NCBI GenBank assembly: GCA_050250895.1
Contig: JBFWNU010000001.1
Span: forward strand, 2,884,891-2,948,890
DNA: 64,000 nt
Direction: 5' to 3'
From: Vulcanimicrobiota bacterium
GTDB taxonomy: Bacteria; Vulcanimicrobiota; Xenobia; Xenobiales; JADMJV01
The stretch's first letter is position 1, and every line of letters starts with the position of its first letter. The translations under genes were made by a program, and so were the position numbers. This document shows positions 6,951-36,289 of the stretch, in pieces. The notes beneath the pieces were generated by a model that was not told the origin of the DNA, ran no database searches, and saw only the letters and a list, made by a program, of their open reading frames with translations.

Positions 6951-7653
6951 GTTGGCGCCACTGGAGGAACTCGAAGCTGCTTTACCCGGCCTGGGCGGGG
7001 CCGTTCAACGACACCACCTGGGCCAGAAGCTGGACTTTGCCTGTTCTCGCCTCGATAAGATCGCCGGAAGAGCGCAGGAGTTGGCGACCTATCCCGAGGT
7101 TCTGCCCCTGGTAATTGAGCAGCTCGAGGCCGTTGTTCGAGAGAATCTAGCTGGCAAGGCGCGAGGAGTTTGGGCCATCGGGGACAGGGCGTGCAAAGCG
7201 GACACCGCCGACGCTCTCGACGAGTTGGCTCGGGAGTTGAGCAAGATTGGCGAGTGGGCTAAGGAGATGCAGAGCTATCTCTTGGCGGCCTGGCAGCGAC
7301 GGGTCAAGACGGAGTTCGGCCCGGCCGGCCACTTGGGCCGGGTCCTCCAAGAACTCGCCGATGCGCCAGACCTGCGCGAAGTCGCCGAAATGATGACTGA
7401 GGTCGGTGCCGAGGGGGCGAAGTGCGGTGCCCGCTTGCCAGTGAACGAGGAACAGCGGAGGAGGTTCGCCCGCTTACGGGCTGAGCGCGACGAGGCCTAT
7501 GCGCTGTTGGCTGCTTCAGGGGCAGCGGATGATGTGGTGGAGTTTCTCCAGGCTGTGGCCGAGGATAGAGCGACGCTGGAGCAGGTCACTCCGGGAGTTT
7601 TTGGTTGGTTGCGGGAGAAGGGCGCTGGGGGAAGGTTTAGGGTGGGGTTATGA
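6940..7653 (+). CDS. DpdI-like alpha-helical protein
   Basis: 237-aa helical protein overlapping the dpdH stop, with C-terminal FLQAV...ATLEQVTPGVFGWL. Called from size and position. Confidence 0.5.
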   Translation: MKSKLAPLEELEAALPGLGGAVQRHHLGQKLDFACSRLDKIAGRAQELATYPEVLPLVIEQLEAVVRENLAGKARGVWAIGDRACKADTADALDELARELSKIGEWAKEMQSYLLAAWQRRVKTEFGPAGHLGRVLQELADAPDLREVAEMMTEVGAEGAKCGARLPVNEEQRRRFARLRAERDEAYALLAASGAADDVVEFLQAVAEDRATLEQVTPGVFGWLREKGAGGRFRVGL

Positions 7654-7686
7654 AGCACTCCGTGATAAGGGGTGTTTTCGGCTGCT

Positions 7687-12099: not shown

Positions 12100-13024
12100 A
12101 CTCTCTGACCCACTCTAACGAAGGTGGCATATCCTCCTTGGCCTTTACCAAAAGGCCGAGGCTAGCGCTAAGGCGCTCGACTGCCCAAGACCAGTCGGGA
12201 CTATCGACCTCGTGAAGCCAGACCATGAACTCCCCCGTGCTCGGGATCCGGACCAGTCCACGCTCGCGCAGCCCAATAAAGAAGTCTAAAGCTTTGTCCA
12301 ATCGGTCTAGTCGCTCAAGACGCGTTGAAACCATCGCCTTTAGCTCTTCTTTCTCTGGAAGCGGAATATGGAAGTAGGCGCAGCGGCGGAGGAAGGGGCT
12401 CGGAAGAAGCGATTCCGCATTGCTTGTCAAGAAAATGATGGGACTGCAGGCTGGGTTCGCTTCTAGTTTCACTCTGTGCGGCAATTCTGTCATTTCGAAA
12501 GATGGAGCGTCCTCGAAGGCTGCAAGCAAATCGTTGGGGAAATCTCTCGGAGCCTTATCAATTTCGTCGATGAGGACCAAGCTTCGCACAGGCTCGGTGC
12601 CACACTCTGAGTTCCATAGGCTGAGCTCACGCGGCCGACCCTCGCCGTCCCTTCCCCAGGACCTAAGAATTGCCTTGCCTAGGGCGTTAAAGGTGACAAA
12701 AGATGTCGGCTCGATCGTCTCTCCCTCAGCGCGTAGCTGAGCAGCCCTGAAGTGCCCGATGTGGTCGAAGCTATAGAAAAGATCCTGGTAGCAGGTTGAA
12801 GATCTGGCATTAAACCGATATACAGGCACGCGGAGCTCATTTCCCACATAATAGGCCAGTTGTGTCTTTCCGACTCCTGGATCGCCGGTGACCAAAAACG
12901 GGAGGCCGAGCGTTAGGGCACTCTGTACAGCCTTCTTTAACTCGGGAGAAGCTATATATTCTTGAGGTCGAAATTTCGGTGGTAGGGTTGCTGGAAGGAT
13001 AAAATCCCCTGCCTTCTTGGTCAT
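12086..13024 (-). CDS. MoxR-family AAA+ ATPase
   Basis: Walker A GDPGVGKT, Walker B LVLIDEIDKA, DFPNDLL, and Arg-finger FLRRC. ATG 13024 overlaps the upstream TGA. Confidence 0.9.
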   Translation of the reverse strand: MTKKAGDFILPATLPPKFRPQEYIASPELKKAVQSALTLGLPFLVTGDPGVGKTQLAYYVGNELRVPVYRFNARSSTCYQDLFYSFDHIGHFRAAQLRAEGETIEPTSFVTFNALGKAILRSWGRDGEGRPRELSLWNSECGTEPVRSLVLIDEIDKAPRDFPNDLLAAFEDAPSFEMTELPHRVKLEANPACSPIIFLTSNAESLLPSPFLRRCAYFHIPLPEKEELKAMVSTRLERLDRLDKALDFFIGLRERGLVRIPSTGEFMVWLHEVDSPDWSWAVERLSASLGLLVKAKEDMPPSLEWVREFVDS

Positions 13025-14340
13025 TTGGCGTCTCCAAAAAAATGCGGCTTGAGAATGTCGCCAATGCGCTCTACCCAAATCTCCATGGTCAACGGCTCTT
13101 CGAGTATTTTTCTGGCTTGTGATTCTATTTGCTTTAGTTGGTAGGCTCCACACCACCGCGGAAGGTGCTCTAGATTGATCTTCTCGAAGCCGTCGATTCG
13201 AATACATTCGGCGCCGGGTCCGTTCAACCACGACTCCACGTCCCGCTGCGAGAGTGTGCTTTGAGCGGATGGGTTGAACCAGGTAGCCAACTTTGCCAAC
13301 AGCCCAGGTTCGCGGTATTCTAGAAAAAAGATCACAGAAGCCTGGGGATTTCTGCCGAGACTCTTTTTGAGCAGTCGAAGATATTCACCGAAACGGGGCT
13401 GCATCATTTTCCTTAGAGTCTCTTTCTGGCAGACATATTGATAAAGGAGTCGGGGGCCCCTTCCTACCTGTGAAATCAACTCTCTCTCCACTTCATCCGG
13501 TTCCCAACTCTCCAAGGGCGGGATGTCCAAGCTACGGGGTTCCTGGGGATGTGCGGCGAGATGATCGGTGAAGCGAGAGATGACGTGGCCTGCTAACCCA
13601 AACGCTGCGAACATTTGGCTGCGTTCTCTTTGTCCGGCCCTAAAGAGCTCTCTCTGCGAGTGCCGATTGACCAGGTATTCAACTACTCCCAGTCCCGGCC
13701 GAGAGGGTCCGCACGTAGGGCTCCCATTCCTCCCACCCGCTTCTAGTTCGAACGTGAAATCCCCACACACACTGCGATAACTGTCCAACTTTGGGTCTTT
13801 TCGAACCTCTCGTAGCAACTCTTCTTGCCGCCAACGACCAACCCACAAGATGTCTTTGACATCAATATCGCGACCAAACGGGTGATTCGTTTTTGGTTTG
13901 GTATCGGAGGCTTCCCAACGCTCGTCAAACTGTTTGAAGAACTGCTGTCGGAGTTCATCTTCCCTTTGGCTTTGACCCTCGTCGCTGTCCGCCAAAAAGT
14001 AGAGGGCGCAGTTTGCCGTATTTGTCATCTTGCCAATGAAGAACTCAAGTTCAAGGTATACCCAGCTCTTCTTTCTCGTCAGATTATTGATTGTGTTTTC
14101 AGAGACAAAGACTACCAAGCCTGCCGAGCTCCTCAAACCAGCAGCGAGTTTGGGCGTGATGCCGTCGCCGGGCTTGATAACCGCTTCGTCCAGGAAGACG
14201 GAGAGAGCGTGTTTACCTACTTCGCGAACCTTGAGCGAATCATAAACACTACGCACCCAGCCGCGCTCATGATGGTCTTGACCCTTGTCCCGGCTGTCGT
14301 GCGAAAGGAACAAATCGTAATGTTGATTATCGTCAGCCAT
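13021..14340 (-). CDS. TIR domain fused to a probable inactive STAND (iSTAND) domain
   Basis: N-terminal TIR (YDLFLSHDSRDK, VFLDE...PGD, SWVYLELE). The C-terminal half starts EYLVNRHSQ and lacks an intact Walker A, resembling iSTAND. It is the first gene before MoxR and vWA. Confidence 0.65.
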   Translation of the reverse strand: MADDNQHYDLFLSHDSRDKGQDHHERGWVRSVYDSLKVREVGKHALSVFLDEAVIKPGDGITPKLAAGLRSSAGLVVFVSENTINNLTRKKSWVYLELEFFIGKMTNTANCALYFLADSDEGQSQREDELRQQFFKQFDERWEASDTKPKTNHPFGRDIDVKDILWVGRWRQEELLREVRKDPKLDSYRSVCGDFTFELEAGGRNGSPTCGPSRPGLGVVEYLVNRHSQRELFRAGQRERSQMFAAFGLAGHVISRFTDHLAAHPQEPRSLDIPPLESWEPDEVERELISQVGRGPRLLYQYVCQKETLRKMMQPRFGEYLRLLKKSLGRNPQASVIFFLEYREPGLLAKLATWFNPSAQSTLSQRDVESWLNGPGAECIRIDGFEKINLEHLPRWCGAYQLKQIESQARKILEEPLTMEIWVERIGDILKPHFFGDAK

Positions 14341-14410
14341 GTAACGGAGTGGAACTGCGAAACGAATTCGCAGTCCAGCCGCCCTTATCCTGTCAACCTA
14401 TCTGCGATGC

Positions 14411-15145
14411 CTAGCCAAAGAAGGCGTCGAAAATGTGCGGGGAAAGGAGGAGGACGAGAAAAAAAAGCCAGGCGATGTTGACCTCGAGTTTACCCAACGG
14501 GGTTTCCCTCTCCGGGTCTTGCTTCAGGCCACCGAGGCCTGCGTCGTTTTGGCCGCTCTCAGGAAACTCATCAATTGATGGGGCCTTCTTTTGTATGTCA
14601 TTGATTGAAGGCGATTCCTCTCGCCATGATCCGGCCGGGGTTCCCCCCTCGAAAGGCCGGGATAGGGTGAAGCTGATTCCTTCGGCGAGAAGCTCGGCTT
14701 GTTGTAGCCACTCCGGTTGACCCGGGTGGAGTAACGCCTCGCGACCGTCTGTGTGGAGGAAGAAGCGAATCTGCTTAAACCTGGATAGAAGGTCCCAAAT
14801 CTCCTCAGCCGCCCGACTACGAGGTATTTCTGATTGGAGCAGGATGGGAACGACCTTTGACATACCGTGATTACCAAGAAACGCGGATAGCTCATATCGA
14901 CACCATTCGGACTCGAAGTAGGCCCGAGAAACAATGCAGAGTAACAGCCGGCTGCGCCCAAGCACCCTCTCTGCTTCAAATTCGACACCCGCTGAGAGAC
15001 CGGTGTCATTGAAGATTTTGGTGGGGCGGCCGATGTGCGCCGTAATCCTTTGCTGGAGGAACACCATTAGGGACTCCACCCACTCGGCATCTTCCCCTGT
15101 GTAGCTTATGTATAGGTCGTAGTCAGGGTCGTCTCGGATATTCAT
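14411..15145 (-). CDS. TIR-domain protein with hydrophobic C-terminal tail
   Basis: YDLYISYTGED, LLLCIVSRAYFESEWCRYEL (Glu retained) and VVPILL. The C-terminus IAWLFFLVLLLSP is a possible membrane anchor. Confidence 0.8.
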   Translation of the reverse strand: MNIRDDPDYDLYISYTGEDAEWVESLMVFLQQRITAHIGRPTKIFNDTGLSAGVEFEAERVLGRSRLLLCIVSRAYFESEWCRYELSAFLGNHGMSKVVPILLQSEIPRSRAAEEIWDLLSRFKQIRFFLHTDGREALLHPGQPEWLQQAELLAEGISFTLSRPFEGGTPAGSWREESPSINDIQKKAPSIDEFPESGQNDAGLGGLKQDPERETPLGKLEVNIAWLFFLVLLLSPHIFDAFFG

Positions 15146-15150
15146 GAAAT

Positions 15151-18100
15151 TTAGTCCTCGCCGCTGCCCCTCGCTGGAAGTGCGTCAAGCACCCGCCGGT
15201 CCCAACCCTTCGGTCGGACATCGGGGCACTTGGCAAGGGCCTTGCCGGTCGGCGGGGTTTCGGGTTTTAGACAAGCGAGGTCGGCGGGCTCCATCAAGGC
15301 TCTTCGACTCAAAGCCGCCCTCGCCTGCGTCCCTGACATCAAATCACTGCTCCCAAACAGACAAGCCTCACAGCCATCCGGGCACAGTCGTCCCGCGAAG
15401 CGAAAGACTTGCTCGGCCAGTCGCTCTTCGGGGCTCATCCCGGCCTCATGCGAGACGCCCTCCAGTCCCCGATAGGCGGCAAGTAGGCCCGCCAACTGTG
15501 GCGAGCGGCCGTCCTGAGCTGCTTTCACCGCTCCCGTTACCAGTTCCCAGGTCGACGGGGCCCTGGGCATCGACTGGGCCAGTTCGGCCTCGACCGCTCG
15601 CACTTCGCGAACCAGGTCGAAGAAGTCGAACTGCTCCACGCCGACCGTCTCGCGACCGTGCAACAACTGCACCAGGCGTCCAAGGTCACCATCCACGCTC
15701 AATTCGGTCCGTAGCGCCTCGACGAGAGCTGCCCGGTCGAGCGAGCGCCACCGCTCGTGCTGCTCGCTCATGGCCAGCATCCGGTCCACCGCCGCGTCCT
15801 CGCGAGCGTTCGGACAGTCCACCAGGCCATGGTCCCGAACCTCGTCGAGGGCCTCTTCGAAGCTCTCCAAAAAGGTCCGGGTGGTCCCGTCCCCGTGGTC
15901 ACCGTTCTCCACCACCGAGATGATGTCGTGAGACTCGGCCCCAAATTGCAGAGGCAGCCGAGCGTGAAAGAGCACCCGGCGCTCGTCCCCCCGCCCATAG
16001 AGCACGAAGAGGTCCCGCAGACGCATCGCCAACCCATGCAGAAAGAGCGACCGAAGGTAACCCCGAAAGACCTCCGCGTCGCTGACATCGGTGACGATCT
16101 TGCGAAAGGTGTCGGCGAAGCCGGCCCGCTCCAGCACCTTTTCCAGCTTGTCGATGCGCCGCTCGGTCAGCAACGGGTGATAGCGCAAGACGTTGCGATA
16201 GGTCTCTCGCAGCAGGTTCATCATCCTGGTCTGGTCCCACCGCCCCCGCAACACTTTCTTCCCTTCGTCACTGGCGGCCGCGCTCACGAACAACTCGGCC
16301 AGGCGGTTGGCTTCGAAGCTATTCACGCCGAGGCCCGATAGCCTGCTCTCCATCAAATAGGCCAGTAACTTGCCCCGATAGTGGCGCTCCTCGCCCGGAT
16401 TGGCCTGGAGATGCTCCAGCATGGCATCGACCCGAGCATCGAGCTTGGCGCTGTCGACGTGAAACCGCACTCCCTCGGTCTCGACCTGATAGCCGTGCAG
16501 CAGGGTCTTGTCGGTCTTGGGATAGACGAAGGTCTGGGTGAACTCGGCGTCCTGGGTCTTGGTGTCTTTGAGCTTCAGCGACACGTCGGCCCCCCAGTAT
16601 AGGCGGGTGACCCGCAGCCCCGTGCCCGGCCGGTCGGATGAGCCGACAAAGGCCTCGACTTTCTCGAACAGGTCAGATAGGTCGGTGGGGGTGATGTCGC
16701 TGCCGCGGCCGTCTTCAGCCGCCACCACCAGAAAGCCCCGTAGGAATGAGCGACTCTTTTCGGTGGCCGGCAGGCCCGGCTCTTGCTGTTGCTTGTCTCG
16801 CTTGATGAGACCGTGGCCCTCGCGATAGAGCCAACCCGAGGTGAAGCTGGCGCCAGACATTTTCCCGCCGAGGTCGAGGTCGAGGGTCTTCGGACGGCAG
16901 ATCTTGGGGTAGATCTCGGCCCCAAGGCCATCCCGCACCTCGACGGGCAGCTCGCGACGAAAGTCTTCTCCGCTCTGTTCCTGACCGGTGAGCGTGAAGC
17001 CGGTGCTGTCGCGATAGTCGCTCAAGAAGGGGCTGCGACCGGGCGTGGGGGGCACCCAGTGGACCGTCCCCATGCCGTAGCGGCGGGTCATATTGCCCGG
17101 GGCGCACTCGGTAAAGGCCAGGGTGATATCGACAGGCACCGGGTCTCGCGCATCGGGATGGCGCACCATCAGCAGCGGCAGGTTGATCGAGTCAAACAGC
17201 CGCTGGGGCACCCAGGCCAGACTGCCACGCCACGTCGAGGGCTCTGCGGTCACGTCCAGTCCTTCCTCTTCCAGCAGCTGCTGAAACAAGGGAAGCGAGC
17301 TCTCGAGGCCGAGAATGGCGAACACCGTTGGCCCGCAGGCGGCCACGACCATCTCATCCGCCATGGTCACCAGTTGAGGCGCCACCTCGAGCTTGCCAGA
17401 GGTTCTTCTCAAGCCGTACTTTCCGGGATGCAGGGTTCGAAAGCGGGCCACGGCGTCGAGAGCGGTGGCGGCCGCCTGACCACGCACGACGAAATAGTTG
17501 CTGATGTTGAGCGGCACCGCGAAGTTGCGGGCATCGAGCATCCGCCGAGGCGAGCGAAAGTACCACGAGTCTCGCGAGGAATAGACCGACAACGTCACTC
17601 CCGTCACGGGACGGTCATCGGCTCCGCGGCCCCCTCGACCCTTGCGTTGGATGAAACTGGCTAGATTGCCCGGAGCATAGTGCTGATAGACGAGCGTCAT
17701 GTCGGGGTCGTCATAGCCCACCTCGAGAGTCGAGGTGGCAAAAATGAGGTCACTGTTCTGCAGCAGTTCTTCGGTGCGACCGCTGGTGCCTGAAAAGATG
17801 GGGCGGTGGGCTACCGTGAGAGGGTCGCCGGGGCGATAGCGTTTGCCGGCCATCCACTGAGCCTGGTCGGTGGCCGCGAAGAACCAACACTCGCCCTCAC
17901 GAAAGCGGTCACAAGAGAGCGGCTCCCTGCAGCAGGCGCGGCACGGCTCGCCGGTGGCCGGGTCGTCGTCAAGTAGTTCGGTGCGTAGCGCCGCCAGTTT
18001 GTTGGCCTCCGCATCCGAGTAATCGCTGTGCAGGCGCTTGAGTTTGTCGATCGAGTCGAGAAAGACCACGCCTCGAAAGCCGCCTTCTTTGCCGGTACGG

Positions 18101-21100
18101 CGGCGCATTCCGTGGGCCAAACACATCAGGCACTGGATGGTGGTCGAAGCGCCGGCGATGTCCTGGCCTCGCGATTCGACCTCTGGCTGGACGAAGTAGA
18201 AATACTCCCGACCGCGCGGATTGACCAGTCGTTCCTCCTCGGTCGGCCCCAGGGCCACCACCTGCTGGCGGCCACAAAGGTCACCCCACACCCGGTCGGG
18301 GCGGCTCAGGGTGGCGCTCATCCCAATGGCCAGAGGACTTTCGTCGCCGTTGACGGTCAGGCGCGCCAACAACCGCCGCAGGGCATAGCCAACCTGGGCC
18401 CCGTGCACATGCGAGTAGAGATGGATCTCGTCGGCCATCACCGCCCGAGCGGGAGCAAACTCCGTATCGCCAAAGATCGCACCATATCTGGAGTCGTGTT
18501 GCCACTGGTGGAGCGACTCGGTGACCGGCAAGAAGAAGTGAGGCGGGTTTTGGCGCAGGCCCTCCTTCGAGCCAATCCACCCCAAGAAGCACCAACCGCA
18601 AGCACACTCCAGTCGGTCGGCCCCTCCTCGGCCCTCACCCTCGAGCAAAGATAGATCCTGCGAACATTCAGGACAAGAGAAGAAAGGAAACTGCAAGGCT
18701 CCGCCAGGCAGCGCCCGCCATTCTTCGAACTTGTCGGGGTTGGACCGCAGATAGCCAAAGGCCGAGGGTACGCTGCCGTTCTGCAAGCCGATGGTGAGAG
18801 GAGCGACCCCGGGGTGCTGGTTGAACGCGGCCAGGTAGCGCACCAACCGCTGCGCCTGGTTGGCCCCCAGGCGAATGCGGGGATAGACCAGGATGGCCCG
18901 GCAGCCGCGCACCCCCCGCAGTGCGTCGACGGCTGCTCCCACCAGCATCGGCAGGCAAGCCGCTTCGGTCTTGCCCGAGCCGGTGTCGGCTGTTACCACG
19001 AAGGCCTCCTCCTTGCCAACCCCCAGCCAGGCCGAGAGGATGCTCAAAAGAGCGCGCTGCTGAAAGCCGGCGATGGTCGGGTTGTCGACGCCCCAGCAGA
19101 CCGAGAGCATGTGAGCGCAGGCCTCCAGGGCCAACTCAAGATTGGGATCGTCGGCCAGCAGGCCCCGGGCCTGCTCCAGAGTGGCCCGCAGAGAAACGTC
19201 ACGAATCGGCTTCTGGCGGTCGATGGTCTCGAGCTTGAGTGAGCGCACCAGATAGGGGCGCCGGTGGGCGTCGCCCTTGCGAAAGCGCTGCTTCACGTAG
19301 CGCAACTCGCGGGCCAACTCGGCCATGCGACTGCGAACGCCGCCTTGCTCGTCGGGCATCAGATGGCCATGTTGCTCAAGCCGGTTAATGGGTTCTAAAA
19401 GCGCGTCGCGGGCCACACCCAGTCTTTCGGCCAGCGTGGAGAGCATCACCCACGATTCGGTCACGCCGAAATTGATGCGACCTCGCTCGATATCCTCAAG
19501 AGCGTTCAATACCTCGAAGTCACCGTCGGTGAGTTGCACTTCTGGCGGTGGCAGGGGCTGCTCGTTCACTTCCGTCGCGCTAGTCAGATCGAAGGTTGGT
19601 TCGTCGTTATGGCTGGTCTCCACCAAAAGGCCCTCTTTGACCAGGTCTCTCAGCAAGGGCAGTAAGACATCCTGCTCCTGGGCATTGACCCATACAAAGC
19701 TGTTGCGCAGGTGGCGGTATTGGGGCGCGAATCGGCCTCGGCGGCGAGAGTGGATCACCTCGTCGATGCGGCTGCGCACGGTCACCTCATCGGCGGTAAA
19801 TGGCAACGACGGCGGCTCGATCGGTTTGAAGCACCAGAACCTTCCGTGGGGCCCCGTCTGTTCGGCGAACTCGATCATGCCCAGGGTTAGCAACTGATGA
19901 AAGAGGGCGAAGGGCGGTTGGTAGGCAAGCTTCTTGCGGACTGCGCTCACGGTGGCGTTGCCGTAGCGGCTCTCGAGGGCGCAAGCTTTGATGGCTCCGA
20001 AGAGTTCCTCGAGTTCCCTCGTCAGCTCTGGGGGATCTTCGACGGCAGAGACCTCGACTGGCTGTAGCTCTTCTGGCGCCTGACCGAAGGTCTTGACGCG
20101 GATGGTGACCTCGACCCCTCTTCCGTCGCACTGACGTTCGACTGCGCCGATTTTGTGTGTGTCGAAGAGGAACTCGCGCAGCAGTTGGGCGTGTTCAAAG
20201 AGTTCCTCGTCGGGTGGCACCACCTCGAGCAGACGATTGCTGGCGATCACCACCAGTTTGGTCTTAGCTCGCGTGATCATCACGTTGAGGCGCTGGGGAT
20301 TGAAGAGAAACTCGGCCTCTGACAGAGCGAATTCTGGGTCTGAGACGGTGTAGCAGGCCAGAATGGTATCGCGCTCTTTGCCCTGGATGCGCTCCACCGT
20401 CTCGACCACACAGCCCTCACTCAGCGTCGAGTTCTCGAAGCTCCGTCGAATAGCGGCGTTCTGGGCACGATGCGGCGTGATGATGGCGAACCGGTCCTGC
20501 CAGAACTGGTCGTGGTCGAGATAGCGGTGGAACAGCCTGGCCAGGTGGCCGGCTAGATCGACCTCGAATGGGTTGAGCGTGCCGTTCGGCGGGCCATCGT
20601 GCAGCAGCACCACGATCGGATGCTCGGGGTCGAGCACGGCGCACTCCCAGGGGGCTAGAGCCTCCCTCCAGTCGCCTCGCAGTTCCAGGCGCTGCTGCCC
20701 TGACTGCTCGGACGCTTTGTAGTTGCTCTGGTAGAAGCTCTGCGCCGGAAAAGCGGCCAGGGGGGCATTGAGCCGAAAAGTCTCGTCGAGGGGAAACTCC
20801 GGAATCTCGGCCTTCTTCAAGAAGGCATAGAGCGAGCCCGTGAGGCGCCGCTCATCGAGTTCTTCATCCTGGCTGGCCCGGATGGGAGCTAACTGGCGGT
20901 CGTCGCCCACCACCAGCACGCGCCCGTCGTTGGCCAACCCACCTAGCCCCAGCAGGCCGTGCGAGAGCAGCATTTGCGAGGCTTCGTCGACACAGACCAG
21001 GTCGAACCTGGGAGCGTCGCCCCGTTTGAGCCTCTTGAAGAGCGACCACACGGTACCGCCGGCCACAAACCACTCGGCCTCGAGCGGCTTGACCGTCTTG

Positions 21101-21522
21101 TGGTCGAGGGCCTCCACATCGCCAGCCAGATCCTCCGGAGCCTGCTTGCCCAGGAAGAATACCGGCCCCGGGCCCGTGCGGCGCACGACCGCGTTCAGCA
21201 CGTTGACCACCGCGTTGCGCGTGAAGGCCGTCACGAAGACTCGGCAGGGCCGATTCTGGGCTTGCCGAGCCCTCAGATAGCCCACTGTCATGGCCGAGAG
21301 CACGAAGGTCTTGCCGGTGCCTGGAGGGCCTAGCAACAGTGCCGCCCTGTGGTTGGCGATCCCCTGCCAGGCCCGCTGTTGGCCGTCCAGGAGTTTGGTC
21401 ACCCCGCTCAGTTCCTGGCCCTCGAGCCAGGCTTGTCGGGAGTGCTCGGCCACCTGGGCCGCAAATTCGGCAGGCTTGGCCAGAAAGTGGTTGATTTGTT
21501 GGCGCACGCCGCTGTCGATCAC
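15151..21522 (-). CDS. Fusion of an SF1 (Dna2/Upf1-like) helicase, wHTH-like linkers and a DpdJ-like DEAH helicase (2123 aa)
   Basis: SF1 motifs GPPGTGKT, DEASQ, GDDRQL, IITPHRAQ, TVERIQGKERD and RLNVMITRAK. SF2 motifs ADTGSGKTEA, DEIH, MSAT, ATSTLEVGYD and QRKGRGGR. RSRMAE...QRF and terminal CPDGCEAC resemble DpdJ. Confidence 0.8.
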   Translation of the reverse strand: MIDSGVRQQINHFLAKPAEFAAQVAEHSRQAWLEGQELSGVTKLLDGQQRAWQGIANHRAALLLGPPGTGKTFVLSAMTVGYLRARQAQNRPCRVFVTAFTRNAVVNVLNAVVRRTGPGPVFFLGKQAPEDLAGDVEALDHKTVKPLEAEWFVAGGTVWSLFKRLKRGDAPRFDLVCVDEASQMLLSHGLLGLGGLANDGRVLVVGDDRQLAPIRASQDEELDERRLTGSLYAFLKKAEIPEFPLDETFRLNAPLAAFPAQSFYQSNYKASEQSGQQRLELRGDWREALAPWECAVLDPEHPIVVLLHDGPPNGTLNPFEVDLAGHLARLFHRYLDHDQFWQDRFAIITPHRAQNAAIRRSFENSTLSEGCVVETVERIQGKERDTILACYTVSDPEFALSEAEFLFNPQRLNVMITRAKTKLVVIASNRLLEVVPPDEELFEHAQLLREFLFDTHKIGAVERQCDGRGVEVTIRVKTFGQAPEELQPVEVSAVEDPPELTRELEELFGAIKACALESRYGNATVSAVRKKLAYQPPFALFHQLLTLGMIEFAEQTGPHGRFWCFKPIEPPSLPFTADEVTVRSRIDEVIHSRRRGRFAPQYRHLRNSFVWVNAQEQDVLLPLLRDLVKEGLLVETSHNDEPTFDLTSATEVNEQPLPPPEVQLTDGDFEVLNALEDIERGRINFGVTESWVMLSTLAERLGVARDALLEPINRLEQHGHLMPDEQGGVRSRMAELARELRYVKQRFRKGDAHRRPYLVRSLKLETIDRQKPIRDVSLRATLEQARGLLADDPNLELALEACAHMLSVCWGVDNPTIAGFQQRALLSILSAWLGVGKEEAFVVTADTGSGKTEAACLPMLVGAAVDALRGVRGCRAILVYPRIRLGANQAQRLVRYLAAFNQHPGVAPLTIGLQNGSVPSAFGYLRSNPDKFEEWRALPGGALQFPFFSCPECSQDLSLLEGEGRGGADRLECACGWCFLGWIGSKEGLRQNPPHFFLPVTESLHQWQHDSRYGAIFGDTEFAPARAVMADEIHLYSHVHGAQVGYALRRLLARLTVNGDESPLAIGMSATLSRPDRVWGDLCGRQQVVALGPTEEERLVNPRGREYFYFVQPEVESRGQDIAGASTTIQCLMCLAHGMRRRTGKEGGFRGVVFLDSIDKLKRLHSDYSDAEANKLAALRTELLDDDPATGEPCRACCREPLSCDRFREGECWFFAATDQAQWMAGKRYRPGDPLTVAHRPIFSGTSGRTEELLQNSDLIFATSTLEVGYDDPDMTLVYQHYAPGNLASFIQRKGRGGRGADDRPVTGVTLSVYSSRDSWYFRSPRRMLDARNFAVPLNISNYFVVRGQAAATALDAVARFRTLHPGKYGLRRTSGKLEVAPQLVTMADEMVVAACGPTVFAILGLESSLPLFQQLLEEEGLDVTAEPSTWRGSLAWVPQRLFDSINLPLLMVRHPDARDPVPVDITLAFTECAPGNMTRRYGMGTVHWVPPTPGRSPFLSDYRDSTGFTLTGQEQSGEDFRRELPVEVRDGLGAEIYPKICRPKTLDLDLGGKMSGASFTSGWLYREGHGLIKRDKQQQEPGLPATEKSRSFLRGFLVVAAEDGRGSDITPTDLSDLFEKVEAFVGSSDRPGTGLRVTRLYWGADVSLKLKDTKTQDAEFTQTFVYPKTDKTLLHGYQVETEGVRFHVDSAKLDARVDAMLEHLQANPGEERHYRGKLLAYLMESRLSGLGVNSFEANRLAELFVSAAASDEGKKVLRGRWDQTRMMNLLRETYRNVLRYHPLLTERRIDKLEKVLERAGFADTFRKIVTDVSDAEVFRGYLRSLFLHGLAMRLRDLFVLYGRGDERRVLFHARLPLQFGAESHDIISVVENGDHGDGTTRTFLESFEEALDEVRDHGLVDCPNAREDAAVDRMLAMSEQHERWRSLDRAALVEALRTELSVDGDLGRLVQLLHGRETVGVEQFDFFDLVREVRAVEAELAQSMPRAPSTWELVTGAVKAAQDGRSPQLAGLLAAYRGLEGVSHEAGMSPEERLAEQVFRFAGRLCPDGCEACLFGSSDLMSGTQARAALSRRALMEPADLACLKPETPPTGKALAKCPDVRPKGWDRRVLDALPARGSGED

Positions 21523-23753
21523 GCCTGGTCTCCCAGCATCTCGAGAAACTCGACCACCCTCTCGGTATTGAAGTCGCGGAAGGAGCGGTCAATAAACCAC
21601 TGATCCTCGGGGTTGTCCAGCAAAAGGTGCTGCATCTCGGCGGACCCGTACTTCGCGGCCCACATCCGGGCCCGCACCTGCGTGTTGCTGTCGACAGGGT
21701 CTAGTTGGATCTGAAAAGGTTCCCAGCGGGTGGGGTCGAGCAGGATGTCGGGGTCGTTGTTGGTCAGCACCAGGTTGATGTCATCCGGCCCCAACTCCGC
21801 GTCGCGGCTTTCGGTTGGCACCCTGAACCTGAACCTGGCCCACGGCTTGCCCTCGCGATGACTCTCGAGTCGCAGCTGGGCGAAGCACTTCATCGCATCG
21901 CGGCGCGCCTCCCAAGGTTGGGCCAGGCTGATGAGGGCGTTGAGCATCCCAGACTTCTCGGCCAGCAACTCGTAGGCTCGCAAGATCTCGAGGTCTTCTC
22001 TACCCAGCGGATTGAATTCGGCCTGGAACGCGAAAGGCTGTTTTCTCAGCCGCAGGAACGGAGAAGCAGCGGCAGCGTTCTGTTCGAGCACCCACCGGGC
22101 CAGGTGGCGCAACGAGGCCAGACGAATGCGCAGGTCGTCTTCGATGTCGCGCATACCCCGGTGACCATCTCGAAGCTTGCGCAAGACCTCGATGGAGAGT
22201 CGGGTGGAGAAGTCTCGCTTGAAAGCTTGCGACGGTTCGTAGGCCTCGCTCAGTCCGACAGCGGTGAGAGCCTGGGTGACCTGGCGCAGGTCGTAGGACA
22301 CTGTCACCGGCAGCAGATAGAGCTGCTCCATCACCGTCCTCAGGGCGGTGGCGGGAAGGTGGTGATAGCCGCGATAGCCTGGTTCGGGGATGACTTCTTC
22401 GGGCGGGAATAGTCGCACCAGGTCAAGCAGTCCGGTGCGGATGTCGGGGTCGTTCAGGTGGCGACCCACTGCCCGTTGCAAGTCTTTGGCTTCGGATGGC
22501 TCATAGAGCAAGATGTGGGCGTAGAGGCGCTGGGCTTCGGGCAGCCGCTGGTTGTGCTCGTGCAGCCGTCGCAGGTCGAGGACCAGTTTGCCCAGCACTT
22601 GCTTTAGCGCGCGTATCTCCTCGGCGGGCTGGCCCTTCGGCAAGAGGGCTGTGGCGTATTGCACCTCACCCTGCCAGTCGAGGAGATAGCCGAGAGTGAC
22701 CAGGTTGCCCTGCATCGGGTCGGAGTCGACCACCAGATACAGGCCTACGTCGATGCGAGGTGGCATCAGGTAGGTATAGCGCTCTTCGAGTATCTTCGGC
22801 TGCCCATTCACCAGCGTCTCGGCTCGGAGCCGGAGCAACTCGGCCTGGCGCTTGAGCGACCAGCTGTCGAGCTTCTGGTTGCGGATACCCTGGGCGCGGG
22901 CCAGGCCACCCACTGTGTGGATGCCCAGCTTCTCCAGGGCCCGCTTGGCCTCGTGGCTCATGCCCGGCACGGCCGATACGTCATTCTTGGCGGCTTCTCG
23001 CTCGATGGCGCGACGGCAATGGGGGAGATAGCCACACTGCTCGCATTTGTAGTAGAGGTGGAAGAAGGTTTCGTCTCGTCCGGGTTCTACGACCTGTTCT
23101 TGCAGCCGAGGCACGGTTCTTTCGAAGAAGTCTCTGACCAGGTTCTCATAGCTCTTGAGCTTGAACTCGAGCCTGTCATAGAGCCCGTCGGCTCCGTCTT
23201 CACCGCGGCGCAGGTGCCAGATTTCGCCCACTTCGTCCACTCTCGCCTCGACGCCCATGTCTTTGAGCATGCCCTGGAGCAGGTGGGAGTAGAAAGCCAC
23301 CTGCGCTTTGTGGAAGTAGGTGGCCACCTGGGTTGCTTTGACGTCGATGATGCGAATGGCGCCGTCGACCCACTGGAGTAGGTCGGGGTAGCAATGCCTG
23401 AAGATGATCTGGTCGTCGCTGCTGAGTTGCTGCCTCAGGCTCGGGCCGCCGAAGAGGACGGCCTGGTGGGCGAACTCGCAGTCGTTCTGACCGCGCAGGA
23501 AGGCCGCCGTGATGCGCTGGCCGAGGTTCTGCTCGCCCGCCTTTGGGGTGAGGACCTTGCTCTCGCGCGCCAGGCGGCGGACGACGGCCAGTTCGAAGTC
23601 GTTGCCCAGTTCGGCCCAGCTGTCCTTCTGGTCGTCTTTGAGGATAGGGATGGCCTCGCGCTCGTCGCGACTCATCGTCTCGTAGCGCGTCTTGCGGTCA
23701 CATCGATATTGAAACCACGATTTGATGGTCGTGGCACTGAAGCTTAGTGGCAT
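21519..23753 (-). CDS. PD-(D/E)XK (Cas4/RecB/Dna2-like) nuclease with probable Fe-S cysteines
   Basis: YPDLL...IIDVK...QVAFY catalytic motifs, N-terminal YRC plus CEQC-x5-C, and an HhH-like VPGMS segment. GTGA overlap with the helicase fusion. Confidence 0.8.
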   Translation of the reverse strand: MPLSFSATTIKSWFQYRCDRKTRYETMSRDEREAIPILKDDQKDSWAELGNDFELAVVRRLARESKVLTPKAGEQNLGQRITAAFLRGQNDCEFAHQAVLFGGPSLRQQLSSDDQIIFRHCYPDLLQWVDGAIRIIDVKATQVATYFHKAQVAFYSHLLQGMLKDMGVEARVDEVGEIWHLRRGEDGADGLYDRLEFKLKSYENLVRDFFERTVPRLQEQVVEPGRDETFFHLYYKCEQCGYLPHCRRAIEREAAKNDVSAVPGMSHEAKRALEKLGIHTVGGLARAQGIRNQKLDSWSLKRQAELLRLRAETLVNGQPKILEERYTYLMPPRIDVGLYLVVDSDPMQGNLVTLGYLLDWQGEVQYATALLPKGQPAEEIRALKQVLGKLVLDLRRLHEHNQRLPEAQRLYAHILLYEPSEAKDLQRAVGRHLNDPDIRTGLLDLVRLFPPEEVIPEPGYRGYHHLPATALRTVMEQLYLLPVTVSYDLRQVTQALTAVGLSEAYEPSQAFKRDFSTRLSIEVLRKLRDGHRGMRDIEDDLRIRLASLRHLARWVLEQNAAAASPFLRLRKQPFAFQAEFNPLGREDLEILRAYELLAEKSGMLNALISLAQPWEARRDAMKCFAQLRLESHREGKPWARFRFRVPTESRDAELGPDDINLVLTNNDPDILLDPTRWEPFQIQLDPVDSNTQVRARMWAAKYGSAEMQHLLLDNPEDQWFIDRSFRDFNTERVVEFLEMLGDQA

Positions 23754-23810: not shown

Positions 23811-25538
23811 CTAACGATCATCCCTCAACCGGTGCAGAACCTGGAGGAGCGGGCCGAGCTGCTCCCTCTCCCACGCACCCAGGGGGCTCTGGACATCAGA
23901 GCCAGCGTTGTTAGCGACCGACGAGGCTACTTGGGCGGTGCGGGCCCCTTCCGAGACGCTGTCTTTTTGGACCGTTTCGCTCTTGGACCGCAAATCCACA
24001 AACATAATGGATTTTACATCTTTTGCGTGTGGCAAGTCCTCTAGTTTTGCACCGGGCAACAACAAGGGAAACAACTTGAAGGCGGGTTCGGTCCTCAGTC
24101 GATGGAGTGCCACCGCAAGCTCAGGCAGTTGGCCATGCTGCGATTCTGGCGTCCGCTCGTTGATGGCAAAAAGGACCGAGCGAGATAACCAAAAACCTGT
24201 AGTGAGTTCTCTTGCATAGTCGGTTCCAGGCGGGATGTCTCGACACCAGAATACCTTCAAACCTTCCTCTCTGAGGAGATTGACGATCGGGTGAATCGCC
24301 TCACTCGCGCTAAAGGGGTAACTCACAAAGATGTCGTACGAGTCAACCACTGCGCGGACCAGATCGTCAAACGGGCTGGGGTCTCGCTCGAAGTCGATGT
24401 AGTTGGGGACTACCATCTCCGACCCGCTGGTCTCCGAACCATCGAATAGATGATCTGTGGTGGCATCATGTAATAGAACTGGAATGACACGGCGATTCCC
24501 CGATCGTCTCGAGCGCTCCCGAAATGTGTTGGCGGGCGAGCCTTCACGGTCAGCTTTGCCACACAGGATCACCTCGACATTCCTTTGGCGGTCGTGGTGC
24601 AAGCGGGATTTCAGGTCGCCGGTTGGGACCGGGGCATCTCTCGCGAGGGCTACGCTGAGGCCCACGCCTTGGAGCATTGCTTTTAGAGATTTGGCGTCCT
24701 CAAGTAATTCTTCCTGATGCCAGATAACGACCTCGCCGCCGCCAGCCTCTTCCAGCACGGCCTTGTCGAGCTTCTCAGCGATACTCTCTGCCAGTAGCCT
24801 CGGGCCGAGGGACCATTTGGTGTAGTATAGCCAGTGCGAGGCGCCTTTGGGCAGGTTTTCGTCGATCTGAATCGCAAGGATGAAGTCCCTCTGAAGCCGT
24901 TGTTGATCCCGGGCCACGGTCCACTCTGCCTCGCAATGGACCGAGGTCAAGTAATCGTCGGAAATCAGCACCACCGTGTAGCGAGACGCCCAGTATCGAC
25001 CGGGAATGGTGCGCTGCGTCCCCCAGATGTCGATATGTTCGTTTTCGTCATAGAAGACCCGTATGCCCCGACGTTCTAGCTCATGACGAAGTTGGTTTGC
25101 CTTTGCTCGTTGAGTGCCCCGGAAAGACAGCGCGACATCGTAACGATACTTGTGGCGGTAATACCGCCAAGACGCGGCAGCCGCGAGGGCCTTTTCTATG
25201 TCTGGTTGGCCATTCGGTGTTGTGCCCATCTCTACGACGCCCGTGTATAGCTTGTGATGTTGAAGGCTGGTGTCGTCCTTTCCAAAAGTTATGAATGCTG
25301 GGTGAGGTCGTCTCTGGTCATCGCAATGCATCCATATGCTCTCGACGAGTTTGGAATGGCGAATCACCCCCGCGCGCAAATCCGCCAACAAGATGAGATC
25401 TTGTTCTAGAGCCTGACTGCAGGACGGGATTTCACTGCACTGAGACACTTCCAGCGAGATGGCACGCTTTTCAGCTAGTTCTCTCAGTTCGCCTGCAAGA
25501 AGGTCGCGGGTATCTTGTGCTAGGATTAGGATCTTCAT
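23811..25538 (-). CDS. Multi-TIR protein: receiver-like N-terminus, two clear TIR domains and a possible degenerate third
   Basis: TIR1 YDVALSFRG...VFYDE...ISDDYLTSVHCEAEW. Last TIR YDIFVSY...VFWCRDIPPG...QLPEL...LFPLLLPG. A middle segment ending RRVIPVLL...YIDF looks TIR-like. Confidence 0.75.
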   Translation of the reverse strand: MKILILAQDTRDLLAGELRELAEKRAISLEVSQCSEIPSCSQALEQDLILLADLRAGVIRHSKLVESIWMHCDDQRRPHPAFITFGKDDTSLQHHKLYTGVVEMGTTPNGQPDIEKALAAAASWRYYRHKYRYDVALSFRGTQRAKANQLRHELERRGIRVFYDENEHIDIWGTQRTIPGRYWASRYTVVLISDDYLTSVHCEAEWTVARDQQRLQRDFILAIQIDENLPKGASHWLYYTKWSLGPRLLAESIAEKLDKAVLEEAGGGEVVIWHQEELLEDAKSLKAMLQGVGLSVALARDAPVPTGDLKSRLHHDRQRNVEVILCGKADREGSPANTFRERSRRSGNRRVIPVLLHDATTDHLFDGSETSGSEMVVPNYIDFERDPSPFDDLVRAVVDSYDIFVSYPFSASEAIHPIVNLLREEGLKVFWCRDIPPGTDYARELTTGFWLSRSVLFAINERTPESQHGQLPELAVALHRLRTEPAFKLFPLLLPGAKLEDLPHAKDVKSIMFVDLRSKSETVQKDSVSEGARTAQVASSVANNAGSDVQSPLGAWEREQLGPLLQVLHRLRDDR

Positions 25539-25757
25539 CCTGGGCCTCGGAATTTGGACCTGGCGACTCGATTTTGCTGGGGCTTGTCGTTGTAAAGTCC
25601 AGGGGATTTACATTTGGGCATGGATTGCGATCCTTCTTCCTGTCGGCCAGGGTGCCTCACTCGGAATGCAATGGCGCCCAGATGTGTCTGGGGGACTGTT
25701 CTGCTACGGATCTTGTCCCTCTCAGCACTGCTTTCGGCGGTCGCCCGTAGCGGGCCT

Positions 25758-26252
25758 TCACTGGGACCGATGAGGCATCCAACACCATGCGCCGCACCGT
25801 CCTCCAATATAGTTGGGTGTTTTGCTACAATCAATCACAGGCTTGGAGGCCATGTCCCTTGCTCTTCTAGAGGATCGGGTCTCGGCGGGCTTACCAAGGA
25901 ATCGCATCAGCACCCAGATGAGGTTCGCGGACTTGGCCGGCACCAGGGCCCGATTGTAGCCCGAGCGGGAGCCGACCGAGCGCACGATGTTGGTCGAGTA
26001 GGGCGCGTGGTCGAACTCACAGGTCAACTGCAACTCGAACTCATTTGTTGGCCTGCGCAGCAGCCCGCGCGGGCCCTCGATGCCCGGGTCAGGGTGCCGC
26101 GAACTCACCTGGTCTTTCCATCGCCGGCCTCGAAAGGGCGGCAGGGCGGCGAACTGGTGACGGATACGGGCCCGCCAGTCGGGTGCGGCCAGGCGCCGGT
26201 GGCCTGGCGAGAACAGGGTATGATTGAGTGTGATCTCGGTCCGGGGCTTCAC
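25758..26252 (-). pseudogene. Chimeric ORF containing an in-frame fragment of a PilX-like gene
   Basis: GTG start overlaps the upstream stop. Contains APYSTNIVRSVGSRSGYNRALVPAK versus APYSTNNVRSAGSRSGFNRALVPAK in the 503-aa protein. Confidence 0.4.
25932..26008. repeat. 77-bp direct copy of 31748-31824 (inside PilX-like gene 1)
   Basis: Manual alignment: 7 mismatches in 77 bp, no gaps. Confidence 0.9.
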
Positions 26253-27460
26253 GAGGGGAACTTGTGGCCCAGGAAGCGCTGGACCAGGCCGCCACGAGCC
26301 TCGCGAGCGAGAATGGCCCGGATGCGCTCCTCGACCTCCTGCACCCGCCCGGCCTTGCCTGCCGCTTCCATCGTGTAAGAGTAGGCCAGCGACACATCCT
26401 CGCCGGTCACCTCATAGCCATACCCGGCCGCCAGCCAGGTCAGAGCCGCCAGGCCCGCCTCGAGAGCAAAATCGGGTCGCTTCTCGGCGAAGTCCCGAGC
26501 GGCCCGGGTGAGGGTCTGGGGCGCGCAGGGGGCGGACTGGGCCAGGGCGATGGCCTGGTCGAAGAGCTTGGCATCCTTGGCGGCCGCGAACCACTTGCCC
26601 TCATCGCCCGGATTGGCCTCGACCAGGTCGGCCAGGATCTGCTCGGGCGAGCGGTGGGGATACTTCTTGGCCACCGCCCGAAACCAGGCCAGGTAGGTTC
26701 CCGCCCGGTTGGCCTCCAGGCCGTAGCGCTGGTAGGCCTCCTCGACCAGGCCCGAAGAGAGCAGAAGCTCCTCGCAGGCGCGGTCGACCAAAACGGGGCT
26801 GTAGCCATCGCGGCTGGCCTCGGCGTAGCGAAGGGCCTCGGCCTTCCTGCCCAGGGCGGCCAGCGCCTTCACCCCGTACTGCCGATAGTGCCACATTTTG
26901 TAGGGGCATATCTCGAGCAATTCCATGAGTTCCTCGTAGCGCTCGGCGGCCAGCAACGCATTCAAGCAGCAGCTCGTGCCCTTGAAATAGGCACCCTTCT
27001 CGGGACCCCAGACGAGTTTCACGAGGGGCATCAGGCGGTCGGCCCATTCCGCGGCGAGCTTTTGGTTGGCACACATGGCGCCCCAATGGTCCGCCAGGCT
27101 CTCGACCCAGGGCATCTCGTCTTCCTGATAGGCTTCCCAGAGCCGCTCCAGCCACTGGTCTCGAGTCTTGTCATCGGCGGGGGCGGCCGCGATGATATCA
27201 GACAGCGTGGCCAAGGCTCCGTTGACGGTCGAGCCCATCGCGCCCGAGGAACCGTCCACCCGTTCGAGGGCCGGGGCCACCCGCTCGATGAACAGCACAG
27301 CTCCTTCGGCCGCCAGCAACGGGTCGGTCTTGGCCACCTTCTTGATCTCGGCAACCGCCTCTTTCACCCGCTTCATCGCCGGCTGCGACTGCCAGCCGAA
27401 GGCGTTACGGCGGAACCGGGCTCTGAATTGCCAGGCGTGCTTTTTGCTCTTCTCGGCCAT
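26249..27460 (-). CDS. Conserved hypothetical alpha-helical (TPR-like) protein
   Basis: 403 aa from ATG 27460 (MAEKSKKHAWQFRARFRRNAFGW), with host-like codon use and helical repeats. The ORF extension to 27574 runs through a repeat remnant. Confidence 0.75.
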   Translation of the reverse strand: MAEKSKKHAWQFRARFRRNAFGWQSQPAMKRVKEAVAEIKKVAKTDPLLAAEGAVLFIERVAPALERVDGSSGAMGSTVNGALATLSDIIAAAPADDKTRDQWLERLWEAYQEDEMPWVESLADHWGAMCANQKLAAEWADRLMPLVKLVWGPEKGAYFKGTSCCLNALLAAERYEELMELLEICPYKMWHYRQYGVKALAALGRKAEALRYAEASRDGYSPVLVDRACEELLLSSGLVEEAYQRYGLEANRAGTYLAWFRAVAKKYPHRSPEQILADLVEANPGDEGKWFAAAKDAKLFDQAIALAQSAPCAPQTLTRAARDFAEKRPDFALEAGLAALTWLAAGYGYEVTGEDVSLAYSYTMEAAGKAGRVQEVEERIRAILAREARGGLVQRFLGHKFPS

Positions 27461-27515
27461 CGTAGGTGCTCGTTCGCCGGCAAGACTCGACCTCCTTGCC
27501 CGACTTGACTCCGAG

Positions 27516-27580
27516 CGACGGCTGCACAGTCCAGGGCGTCCCCATCGGCGGCTTCGCGGGGGACGGCATCCCATCGAACG
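27516..27580. repeat. 65-bp direct copy of 30008-30072 (inside lipoprotein gene 1)
   Basis: Manual alignment: 7 mismatches in 65 bp. Encodes DGCTVQGVPIGGFAGDGIPSN versus DGCTVQGLHIGGFAGDGITSN. Confidence 0.9.
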
Positions 27581-29218: not shown

Positions 29219-29354
29219 CGGGGACCAGGTTCCTTAGCTCGCAATCGTTGCGGTGGGCGGTTCACGCCTCCCAGTTGCTGCACTCGCTCCTCCAAAAGGA
29301 AGCTCGGGCCCGTCCCAGAAACCCCGAACAATCCATTCGAGGGGGTCCTCAATC

Positions 29355-32092: not shown

Positions 32093-32131
32093 AGGTCCTA
32101 TCCTAGCGAGAAGTGAGCGGGCGTTCGGTGA

Positions 32132-33160: not shown

Positions 33161-33166
33161 AGCCAC

Positions 33167-33283: not shown

Positions 33284-33289
33284 GGGGCT

Positions 33290-34952: not shown

Positions 34953-35008
34953 GCAGACCTCCAGTGAGCGGATCTGGGTGGCTTCTACGACCTCCGGGCG
35001 GCTCCCGT

Positions 35009-36282: not shown

Positions 36283-36289
36283 CCGCCGG

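Follow-up and report, generated by a model that had tools for sequence, protein, structure and literature searches.

We analyzed a 64,000-nucleotide (nt) stretch of DNA from a Vulcanimicrobiota bacterium (contig JBFWNU010000001.1; hereafter the window, in which all positions are counted, with residues numbered per protein) and found on its minus strand a two-gene unit that combines a predicted nuclease with two helicases. The upstream gene (21519–23753) codes for a protein of 744 amino acids (aa), P0001, which is predicted to contain a Cas4/Dna2-type iron-sulfur (Fe-S) nuclease, a helix-hairpin-helix (HhH)-like region, an RNase H-like domain and the stalk and 1B barrel of a superfamily 1B (SF1B) helicase. 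The downstream gene (15151–21522) codes for a double helicase of 2123 aa, P0002, in which an SF1B helicase core is fused to a DpdJ-like superfamily 2 (SF2) helicase of the YprA family. Both open reading frames (ORFs) are intact across 8.6 kb, and they overlap at 21519–21522 by a GTGA stop/start on the minus strand, in which the GTG start of P0002 shares bases with the TGA stop of P0001, and a Shine-Dalgarno (SD)-like GGGAGA lies 8 nt upstream (caggcGTGAtcg). An NTGA overlap recurs in 31 of 37 homologous pairs (ATGA in 25, GTGA in 6; L015 and L031 among the homologous loci, which we label L0xx, were left out of this count). Candidate promoters and terminators between 7000 and 26500 are no more numerous than in shuffled sequence. 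The two genes and their overlap had been reported in a preliminary description of this DNA, and we find them as it gave them.

The N-terminal nuclease domain of P0001 (residues 1–250; 23004–23753, minus strand) displays the 1+3 cysteine arrangement around a PD-(D/E)XK core that had been read from this gene, namely C18 and the set C237-x2-C240-x5-C246. We aligned the protein with 21 homologs (alignment A1) and, in a second alignment, with 39 full-length family members and 6 single-chain relatives (see below). The four cysteines, E54, D124, D137-x-K139 and Q151-x3-Y155 are kept in all 39 members and in all 6 relatives, except that C18 is seen in 5 of the latter, the sixth being N-terminally truncated. 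Pfam PDDEXK_1 scores 22.4 bits (cutoff 22). Foldseek searches of the PDB with an AlphaFold2 model of P0001 (pLDDT 82.2, pTM 0.68) retrieve MGME1, Cas4-Cas1-Cas2, Dna2 and Exo5 at E <= 1e-3, followed by RecE, AdnAB and the SSO0001 Cas4, and, more weakly, by a DnaQ domain (8h18), RNase H (1jl2) and several Upf1-like helicases. A P0001 profile run against PDB chain sequences gave chance-level matches only (E >= 0.42). We predict that P0001 binds a 4Fe-4S cluster and acts as a nuclease. The NCBIfam model for the TM0106 RecB-like nucleases (TIGR03491) aligns with residues 74–388, a span that runs from the nuclease through the HhH-like region into the first part of the RNase H-like domain, and scores 48.9 bits against a cutoff of 97.45; by this curated test, P0001 is not a member of that family. 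Pfam Cas_Cas4 gives E 0.11 for P0001 and matches 7 of the 21 family members at E <= 1; a role for P0001 as a Cas4 of a CRISPR system was rejected, because no cas gene was found among the window ORFs scanned.

In the P0001 model the nuclease (1–250) is followed by HhH-type helices (approximately 243–316), an RNase H-like alpha/beta region (336–497), two long helices (534–561 and 585–611), a beta barrel (623–723) and a last helix (728–742). The middle domain (residues 330–497; 22263–22766, minus strand) is a candidate RNase H-like or DnaQ-like domain by the order of its modeled secondary structure elements, weak fold matches and conserved acidic residues. D343, D345, E418, E421, Y487 and D488 are kept in 39 of 39 members, and the acidic residues are kept or D/E-swapped in the fused relatives, a pattern expected of metal-binding residues. 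The Atlas likeness of P0001 to clusters of PF13482 is 0.88, which we treat as a lead only, and structural entries of the same Atlas also point to the TM0106 family. The Pfam model itself (RNase_H_2, PF13482, typified by MrfB/YprB) matches none of 21 family members, and the assignment of this domain thus stays a fold-level lead.

The C-terminal part of P0001 (residues 520–744; 21522–22196, minus strand) is predicted from a fragment model and fold searches to be a stalk/1B module, with two long stalk helices, a beta barrel and a C-terminal helix. Residues 500–744, modeled alone with 26 homologous fragments (alignment A3; pLDDT 82.7), find SETX as their best PDB match (E 9.1e-4), then Sen1, Dna2 (probability 1.00, TMq 0.37, 193 columns), IGHMBP2 (root-mean-square deviation 5.0–5.7), Upf1 and ZNFX1. 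Upf1-like SF1B helicases make up 13 of the first 14 PDB matches listed; the remaining one is a riboflavin-synthase barrel. The fragment has no RecA domain, and the part that it has in common with these helicases is what we take to be their stalk and 1B barrel. The last ~225 residues of P0001 therefore resemble the stalk/1B portion of such a helicase, and since the C-terminus appears to fold as such an Upf1/Dna2-type module, the gene boundary would lie inside the helicase. The preliminary description had the 744-aa gene end where the SF1 helicase begins; this holds for the RecA core, which does start in the next gene, but not for the stalk/1B-like module, which the first gene already contains.

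P0002 begins with a Dna2/Upf1-like SF1B RecA core (residues 44–455; 20158–21393, minus strand) that is recognized by Pfam AAA_11, AAA_12 and AAA_30. Its SF1 motifs, G65PPGTGKT72, D179E-x-SQ183, G206D-xx-QL211, V373ETV-x-RIQG-x-ER384 and N413V-xx-TRA419, are unchanged in all 16 homologs aligned. Among solved structures in the PDB, mouse DNA2 matches this part best (phmmer E 2.2e-14; by profile, E 1.7e-31 and 111.4 bits); its residues 625–1034 correspond to profile positions 47–478 and rank ahead of Nam7/Upf1, IGHMBP2 and Sen1, and Upf1 is aligned only from chain position 174. By the domain limits of these proteins, the alignment starts presumably lie beyond the stalk/1B regions of DNA2, Upf1 and IGHMBP2 themselves, and judged from these alignments the SF1B core of P0002 is without a stalk/1B module of its own. 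A linker follows (residues 456–810; 19093–20157, minus strand), within which the canonical NCBIfam DpdJ profile starts at residue 672, and in which a winged helix-turn-helix may be present, following the assignment of Bell et al. 2025 (PMC12458937).

The second helicase of P0002 comprises an SF2 DExH core with two cysteine clusters (residues 811–1360; 17443–19092, minus strand), detected by the PADLOC and NCBIfam DpdJ models and by Pfam DEAD and Helicase_C (821–1299), and a C-terminal half (residues 1361–2076; 15295–17442, minus strand) with a DUF1998-type cysteine set, which is covered only by the PADLOC model PDLC02895. The SF2 motifs (A845-x-TG-x-GKT852, D1031EIH1034, S1069AT1071 and Q1292RKGRGGR1299) and three cysteine clusters (C950/C953/C973/C975, C1197/C1198/C1204/C1212 and C1903/C2047/C2051/C2054) are likewise invariant in these 16 homologs. 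The claim of complete SF1 and SF2 DEAH motif sets with cysteine clusters accordingly stands in its substance, with both sets complete and three four-cysteine clusters present, except that motif II reads DEIH, i.e., DExH and not a literal DEAH. PDLC02895, a DpdJ model, aligns its positions 3–2104 of 2112 with residues 6–2076 of P0002 at 1709.9 bits, and by this profile match the SF2 half is a DpdJ-like helicase of the YprA family. Bell et al. 2025 (PMC12458937) place DpdJ in the YprA family and, in their supplementary file 1, name the Skermanella and Methylobacterium homologs of P0002 'Dpd-like helicase'.

A search among longer proteins uncovered 6 single-chain relatives of 1333–1490 aa that join the nuclease and the SF1 helicase. 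Two of them (P0242 and P0245) are collinear with P0001 residues 5–741 and then with P0002 residues 43–472, at 32–35% identity (E 2e-50 and 1e-48), and the helicase part of the single-chain relatives scores best on the N-terminus of PDLC02895 (224–245 bits), above MkoA. A scan of 1.84 billion representatives returned 404 matches at E <= 1e-3; the best 150 of these comprise 49 proteins of 700–830 aa, 21 of 1200–1500 aa, 6 of 831–1199 aa, 73 of less than 700 aa and a single 3312-aa chain. In the 1200–1500 aa class of these 150, every one of the 21 proteins displays CxxCx5C and a later Walker A motif. The 3312-aa protein (P0317, a metagenomic representative) unites the nuclease region, an SF1 core (AAA_11/AAA_12) and a DpdJ-like helicase (DEAD) in one chain and aligns with P0002 from residue 628 to at least ~1930 (31% identity, E 3e-180); a regular-expression search for the exact CxxCx5C pattern had no match in it. 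A FastTree tree of the nuclease parts, limited to 78 sequences of three length classes, separates 45 proteins of 700–830 aa together with P0317 from 27 fused proteins together with 5 of 700–830 aa (local support 100); it is unrooted and gives no order of events. By this collinearity, the pair corresponds to one nuclease–SF1B helicase cut in two. The idea of a Dna2-like enzyme split over two genes, first advanced in the preliminary description, is on firmer ground than when it was made, with collinear single-chain relatives, with a P0001 C-terminus that resembles a helicase stalk and 1B barrel, with a complex prediction that passed its controls (see below) and with DNA2 as the best solved match of the SF1 part.

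Both the fusion and the pairing are conserved. We recovered 443 homologs of P0002; among the 120 matches listed, which come from Alpha- and Gammaproteobacteria, Myxococcota and others, nearly all are ~2100–2170 aa long with the same Pfam set. The double-helicase fusion is therefore not an assembly artefact absent from homologs, as had been considered possible, because nearly all the homologs listed (120 of the 443) are alike in size and domains. Homologs of P0001 number 477, at ~750 aa. In a species-genome scan that gave 50 loci, the helicase gene lies directly downstream of the nuclease gene on the same strand in 38; the remaining 12 comprise 7 loci cut off by a contig edge, 4 with fragments of the nuclease and one, L003, whose nuclease gene is intact but lacks the helicase partner. 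The fragments (L039, L042, L048 and L049) are frameshifted or truncated remnants of the nuclease. The distribution of the pair is sporadic, and it occurs on plasmids and next to integrases and transposases.

We modeled the two proteins together, using P0002 residues 1–480 and P0001 residues 320–744 with their own alignments. The prediction scored 0.68 against 0.00 for the best of three controls; in calibration, 116 of 157 solved complexes and 2 of 215 mismatched pairs came up to this mark, counts that hold only roughly here because own alignments were used. The three runs share at least 67% of their contacts, with a partner pLDDT of at least 75, and the predicted contacts connect P0001 helices 585–598 and 728–741 with P0002 residues 1–15, 159–166, 185–191 and 225–228. 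The NTGA overlap, the 3312-aa all-in-one relative and this prediction suggest that P0001 and P0002 probably form a complex. The preliminary description had looked to structure prediction for an interaction between the proteins and to Foldseek for a likeness to Dna2; the prediction passed its controls, and P0001 does match Dna2. The two-motor nuclease complex that it envisaged is thereby probable as a complex and has two complete sets of motor motifs.

The preliminary description had missed the DpdJ-like nature of the SF2 half, the candidate RNase H-like domain of P0001 and the context: judged by gene content, the two genes are part of a Dpd-like island for 7-deazaguanine restriction. Four genes at the left end of the window, all on the plus strand, are related to Dpd components. 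They code for a DpdF-like RecQ-type helicase, the 5′ end of which is cut by the window edge (2–2854; NCBIfam DpdF 487.8 bits, cutoff 550; PADLOC PDLC02862 484.5), a DpdG-like protein with a weak match (2851–3741; NCBIfam DpdG 58.9 bits, cutoff 80), a DpdH-like ATPase (3738–6950; PADLOC PDLC02884 542.2 bits over its full length; NCBIfam DpdH 323.6, cutoff 450) and a small DpdI-like protein with a very weak match (6940–7653; PADLOC DpdI E 8.9e-4) that falls in the same gene cluster as the DpdI-like gene of other loci. Gene clustering over the 50 loci places DpdI-like and DpdH-like genes in convergent orientation after the helicase gene; among the 35 loci with at least 3 kb downstream, the DpdH-like gene adjoins the pair in 32 and the DpdI-like gene in 27. 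Upstream of the pair many loci display genes for DpdC, DpdB, DpdA, QueE, QueD and QueC, and at least one dpdA/B/C or que gene is found within 10 kb upstream in 16 of the 30 loci with at least 9 kb upstream.

Two plasmids illustrate the complete arrangement. On the Methylobacterium sp. XJLW plasmid (L051), an integrase gene, the nuclease gene and the helicase gene are followed on the other strand by DpdI/H/G/F-like genes, a VUT transporter gene, queC/D/E and dpdB-dpdA-dpdB, and on the Skermanella rosea plasmid (L052) dpdB-dpdA-dpdB, queE, queD, an insertion sequence (IS) element, the nuclease and helicase genes, DpdI/H/G/F-like genes and an integrase gene follow one another. Neither DpdD, DpdE nor the phospholipase D (PLD)-family nuclease DpdK is annotated in either plasmid island, where RefSeq names DpdA and DpdB only, and the PLD nuclease likewise has no match among the window ORFs scanned. 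Between the que and nuclease genes some loci carry extra genes (L021, 8088–9880; L051, 36161–36745) coding for a hydrolase of the HAD type, for a weakly PycTM-like protein or for a transporter of the VUT/YhhQ type.

In the window, a low-GC insert (7687–15145, minus strand; GC 0.53–0.59 against ~0.62–0.65 elsewhere) separates the helicase gene from the DpdI-like gene. Its four genes code for a 1470-aa protein with WD40 and Amidase_2 domains, an AAA ATPase of 381 aa and TIR proteins of 439 and 244 aa, and have no homolog in any of the 50 loci; a repeat search over 7400–15400 found no direct repeats flanking the insert. These 7.5 kb look like a second, foreign defense cassette that was placed into the island and lies outside the conserved system.

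Drawing on the domain content, conservation, gene linkage, fused relatives and passed interface prediction, we propose, with a probability of roughly 0.65, that the pair is the nuclease-motor effector of a Dpd-like restriction system, in which a Dna2-like enzyme has been split and tied to DpdJ and replaces DpdK. Helicase activity, polarity, target and dependence on the 7-deazaguanine modification are what we infer in the following scheme. Host DNA would be marked with 7-deazaguanine by the Dpd-like system, and the two effector chains would be co-produced through translational coupling. P0001 would provide the Fe-S PD-(D/E)XK nuclease, the HhH-like region, the RNase H-like domain and the stalk with the 1B barrel, and P0002 would contribute the two RecA domains of the same SF1B helicase, fused to the DpdJ-like SF2 helicase. 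The chains would join where the stalk helices of P0001 meet the first RecA domain of P0002, which would yield a Dna2-like nuclease-helicase permanently joined to a DpdJ motor. Together with the DpdF/G/H/I-like proteins, this complex may load on unmodified DNA and translocate with two motors; SF1B helicases move 5′–3′ and YprA-family helicases 3′–5′, and the same polarities would apply here by family analogy. The unwound strands would then be degraded, with the complex standing in for the PLD nuclease DpdK.

The opposite polarities suggested in the preliminary description, as in RecBCD, are an extrapolation from these families. A bolder form of the idea, which we regard as doubtful, is a RecBCD-like bipolar machine in which the 5′–3′ Dna2-like and the 3′–5′ YprA motors feed both strands to the Fe-S and RNase H-like sites of P0001, and in which 7-deazaguanine marks stop or disarm it, so that the modification would be a 'self' signal distributed over the DNA and not a shield for a cleavage site.

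Several observations weigh against the proposal that the pair is a Dpd-like effector. All four DpdF/G/H/I-like genes score below the curated NCBIfam cutoffs, and the SF2 half of P0002 reaches 319 bits on the DpdJ equivalog NF041067, against a cutoff of 800 and over residues 672–1360 only. For P0001, PADLOC gives no match to a Dpd model and a weak match to DruK. Among the window ORFs of at least 200 aa there are no dpdA/B/C or queC/E genes; the window starts inside DpdF, and the modification genes may therefore lie to its left or be absent. The stops of the helicase and DpdI genes, which abut or overlap in other loci, are 7.5 kb apart here, and in L003, from a Chromatiaceae metagenome-assembled genome, the 3.7 kb that follow the intact nuclease gene contain no helicase gene. 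On the structural side, the stalk/1B fold scores are modest (E 9e-4 to 5e-2, TMq 0.28–0.38), the RNase H-like assignment of the middle domain draws on leads only, and the passed complex prediction may reflect likeness and not binding, because the two halves form a fold that has been solved as single chains (Upf1 and Dna2). The literature searched holds no experiments on any family member.

Among the alternatives, the one that fares best, though we consider it unlikely, takes the SF1B module to be not a second motor but a sensor or switch whose ATPase, when the DpdJ motor meets a target, would gate the nuclease or release it, as HamB controls HamA in Hachiman. It has a precedent in defense nuclease-helicase heterodimers, which can act as sensor and effector (PMC12278908), yet all SF1 motifs of P0002 are invariant, including those that touch nucleic acid in related helicases, and the stalk/1B module is retained as in the processive enzymes of the Upf1/Dna2 type.

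A little less credible still is a self-standing two-gene unit for defense or DNA processing that has no need of 7-deazaguanine and works alone or with the flanking TIR genes. Such a unit would suit the window, where TIR genes lie on both sides of the pair (one starting 5 nt past the P0002 stop), the foreign cassette parts the pair from DpdI–F and no modification genes are visible, as well as the 3 of 35 loci that lack an adjacent DpdH-like gene. It accords poorly with the 32 loci in which that gene is adjacent and with the dpd or que genes of 16 of 30 loci and of both plasmid islands, and the TIR and other cassette genes occur in 0 of the 50 loci.

That the pair is a housekeeping enzyme of end resection or repair of the AddAB/AdnAB/Dna2 type is highly improbable: the nuclease fold does match AdnAB, Dna2, MGME1 and Exo5, and part of the YprA family works in repair (Bell et al. 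2025, PMC12458937), but the sporadic distribution, the plasmids, the nearby integrases and transposases, the constant linkage to dpd genes and the defense-island character of the window neighborhood all speak for another role. Equally hard to credit is an orphan remnant, silent or decaying and without current function after the loss of its modification partner, for which one could cite the modification genes not seen in the window, the cassette inserted in the island and the decayed nuclease fragments of four other loci, since both ORFs here are intact over 8.6 kb with every motif conserved and with the coupling overlap and SD-like site kept.

Further genes around the island were noted. Upstream of P0001, the stretch 23811–29218 (minus strand) contains, besides small ORFs, genes for a TIR protein of 575 aa that weakly matches SAVED-TIR, a DUF6880-like protein of 441 aa and a protein of 545 aa with NERD and UvrD-type helicase domains (PADLOC RTasNERD-Hel, 175 bits); in L011, a distant pair of a NERD gene and a UvrD-like gene (26.7% identity) follows the helicase gene. 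The next region (29253–46040) holds three paralogous Big_9/Cadherin_5 proteins (29253–30584, 37157–38476 and 39768–41009), T2SSF proteins (32132–33166 and 45018–46040) and a Ser/Thr kinase (43537–44946), with unannotated genes between them. The minus-strand stretch 48397–57779 has genes for an 872-aa CHAT-domain protein, for two hybrid histidine kinases that contain PAS and receiver domains, and for a 494-aa homolog of KaiC (394 bits).

Our literature search found no paper on this nuclease or on the gene split, with Bell et al. as the only relevant one, and the portions of the text and supplement of Bell et al. 2025 (PMC12458937) available to us make no mention of an SF1, Cas4 or RecB part. 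The roles of DpdD–K are stated to be unknown by Gedara et al. 2023 (PMC10164549). A survey of dpd islands (PMC11888242) counts Archangium and Croceibacterium among the genera whose islands lack the restriction operon; in our set, Archangium violaceum (L007) and a Croceicoccus (L019) carry the variant restriction genes, and, as L007 has the variant set, such surveys may undercount it. If the pair is the effector that we propose, it points to motor-driven degradation as the effector step of Dpd systems, in a lineage that swapped the PLD nuclease for a Dna2-like nuclease-helicase on DpdJ. It would also be a natural case of a helicase split within its own fold, at the junction of 1B/stalk and RecA1 (the first RecA domain), and of a motor core transferred to a different helicase, and as such would be useful for studying the assembly of multi-motor nucleases.

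The closest known relative of the island is the Dpd system (dpdA–K) of Salmonella Montevideo, which it resembles in the DpdJ-like SF2 half, the DpdF/G/H/I-like genes and, in related loci, the adjacent dpdA/B/C and preQ0 genes. Unlike that system, it shows no PLD nuclease DpdK, DpdD or DpdE and instead features an Fe-S PD-(D/E)XK nuclease gene and an SF1B core on DpdJ; it also keeps the DUF1998-type cysteine set, which canonical Dpd has lost according to Bell et al. 2025 (PMC12458937). BRIGADE type I, as described in the same paper, differs in that it is reported only from halophilic archaea, has a second YprA helicase of ARMADA-like type as well as a small PLD nuclease, and keeps its Dna2-like protein in one chain. 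The pairing of a YprA-family helicase with a nuclease is shared with DISARM (DrmA/DrmB/DrmC) and with MrfA/MrfB. Of these, DISARM differs in its PLD nuclease, and MrfB/YprB is an RNase H-fold exonuclease, a fold that the middle domain of P0001 may share, although RNase_H_2 matches 0 of 21 P0001-family members. The TM0106 family aligns from the nuclease to the start of the RNase H-like domain, whereas P0001 adds the stalk/1B module and stays below the family cutoff.

RecBCD, AddAB and AdnAB likewise combine two motors with a RecB-type nuclease, and the nucleases of AddB and AdnAB belong to the same fold group; their motors are SF1A and SF1B, in contrast to the SF1B and YprA-type SF2 motors predicted here. 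We know of no Chi-like control for the P0001/P0002 pair. Dna2 and the single-chain bacterial proteins of the P0242 type (1200–1500 aa) have the same order of a 1+3 cysteine Fe-S nuclease, a stalk/1B barrel and an SF1B RecA core. Unlike in Dna2, the chain in our pair is cut between 1B/stalk and RecA1, its RecA core continues into a second helicase, and P0001 has the additional HhH-like region and predicted RNase H-like domain, with low identity to eukaryotic DNA2.

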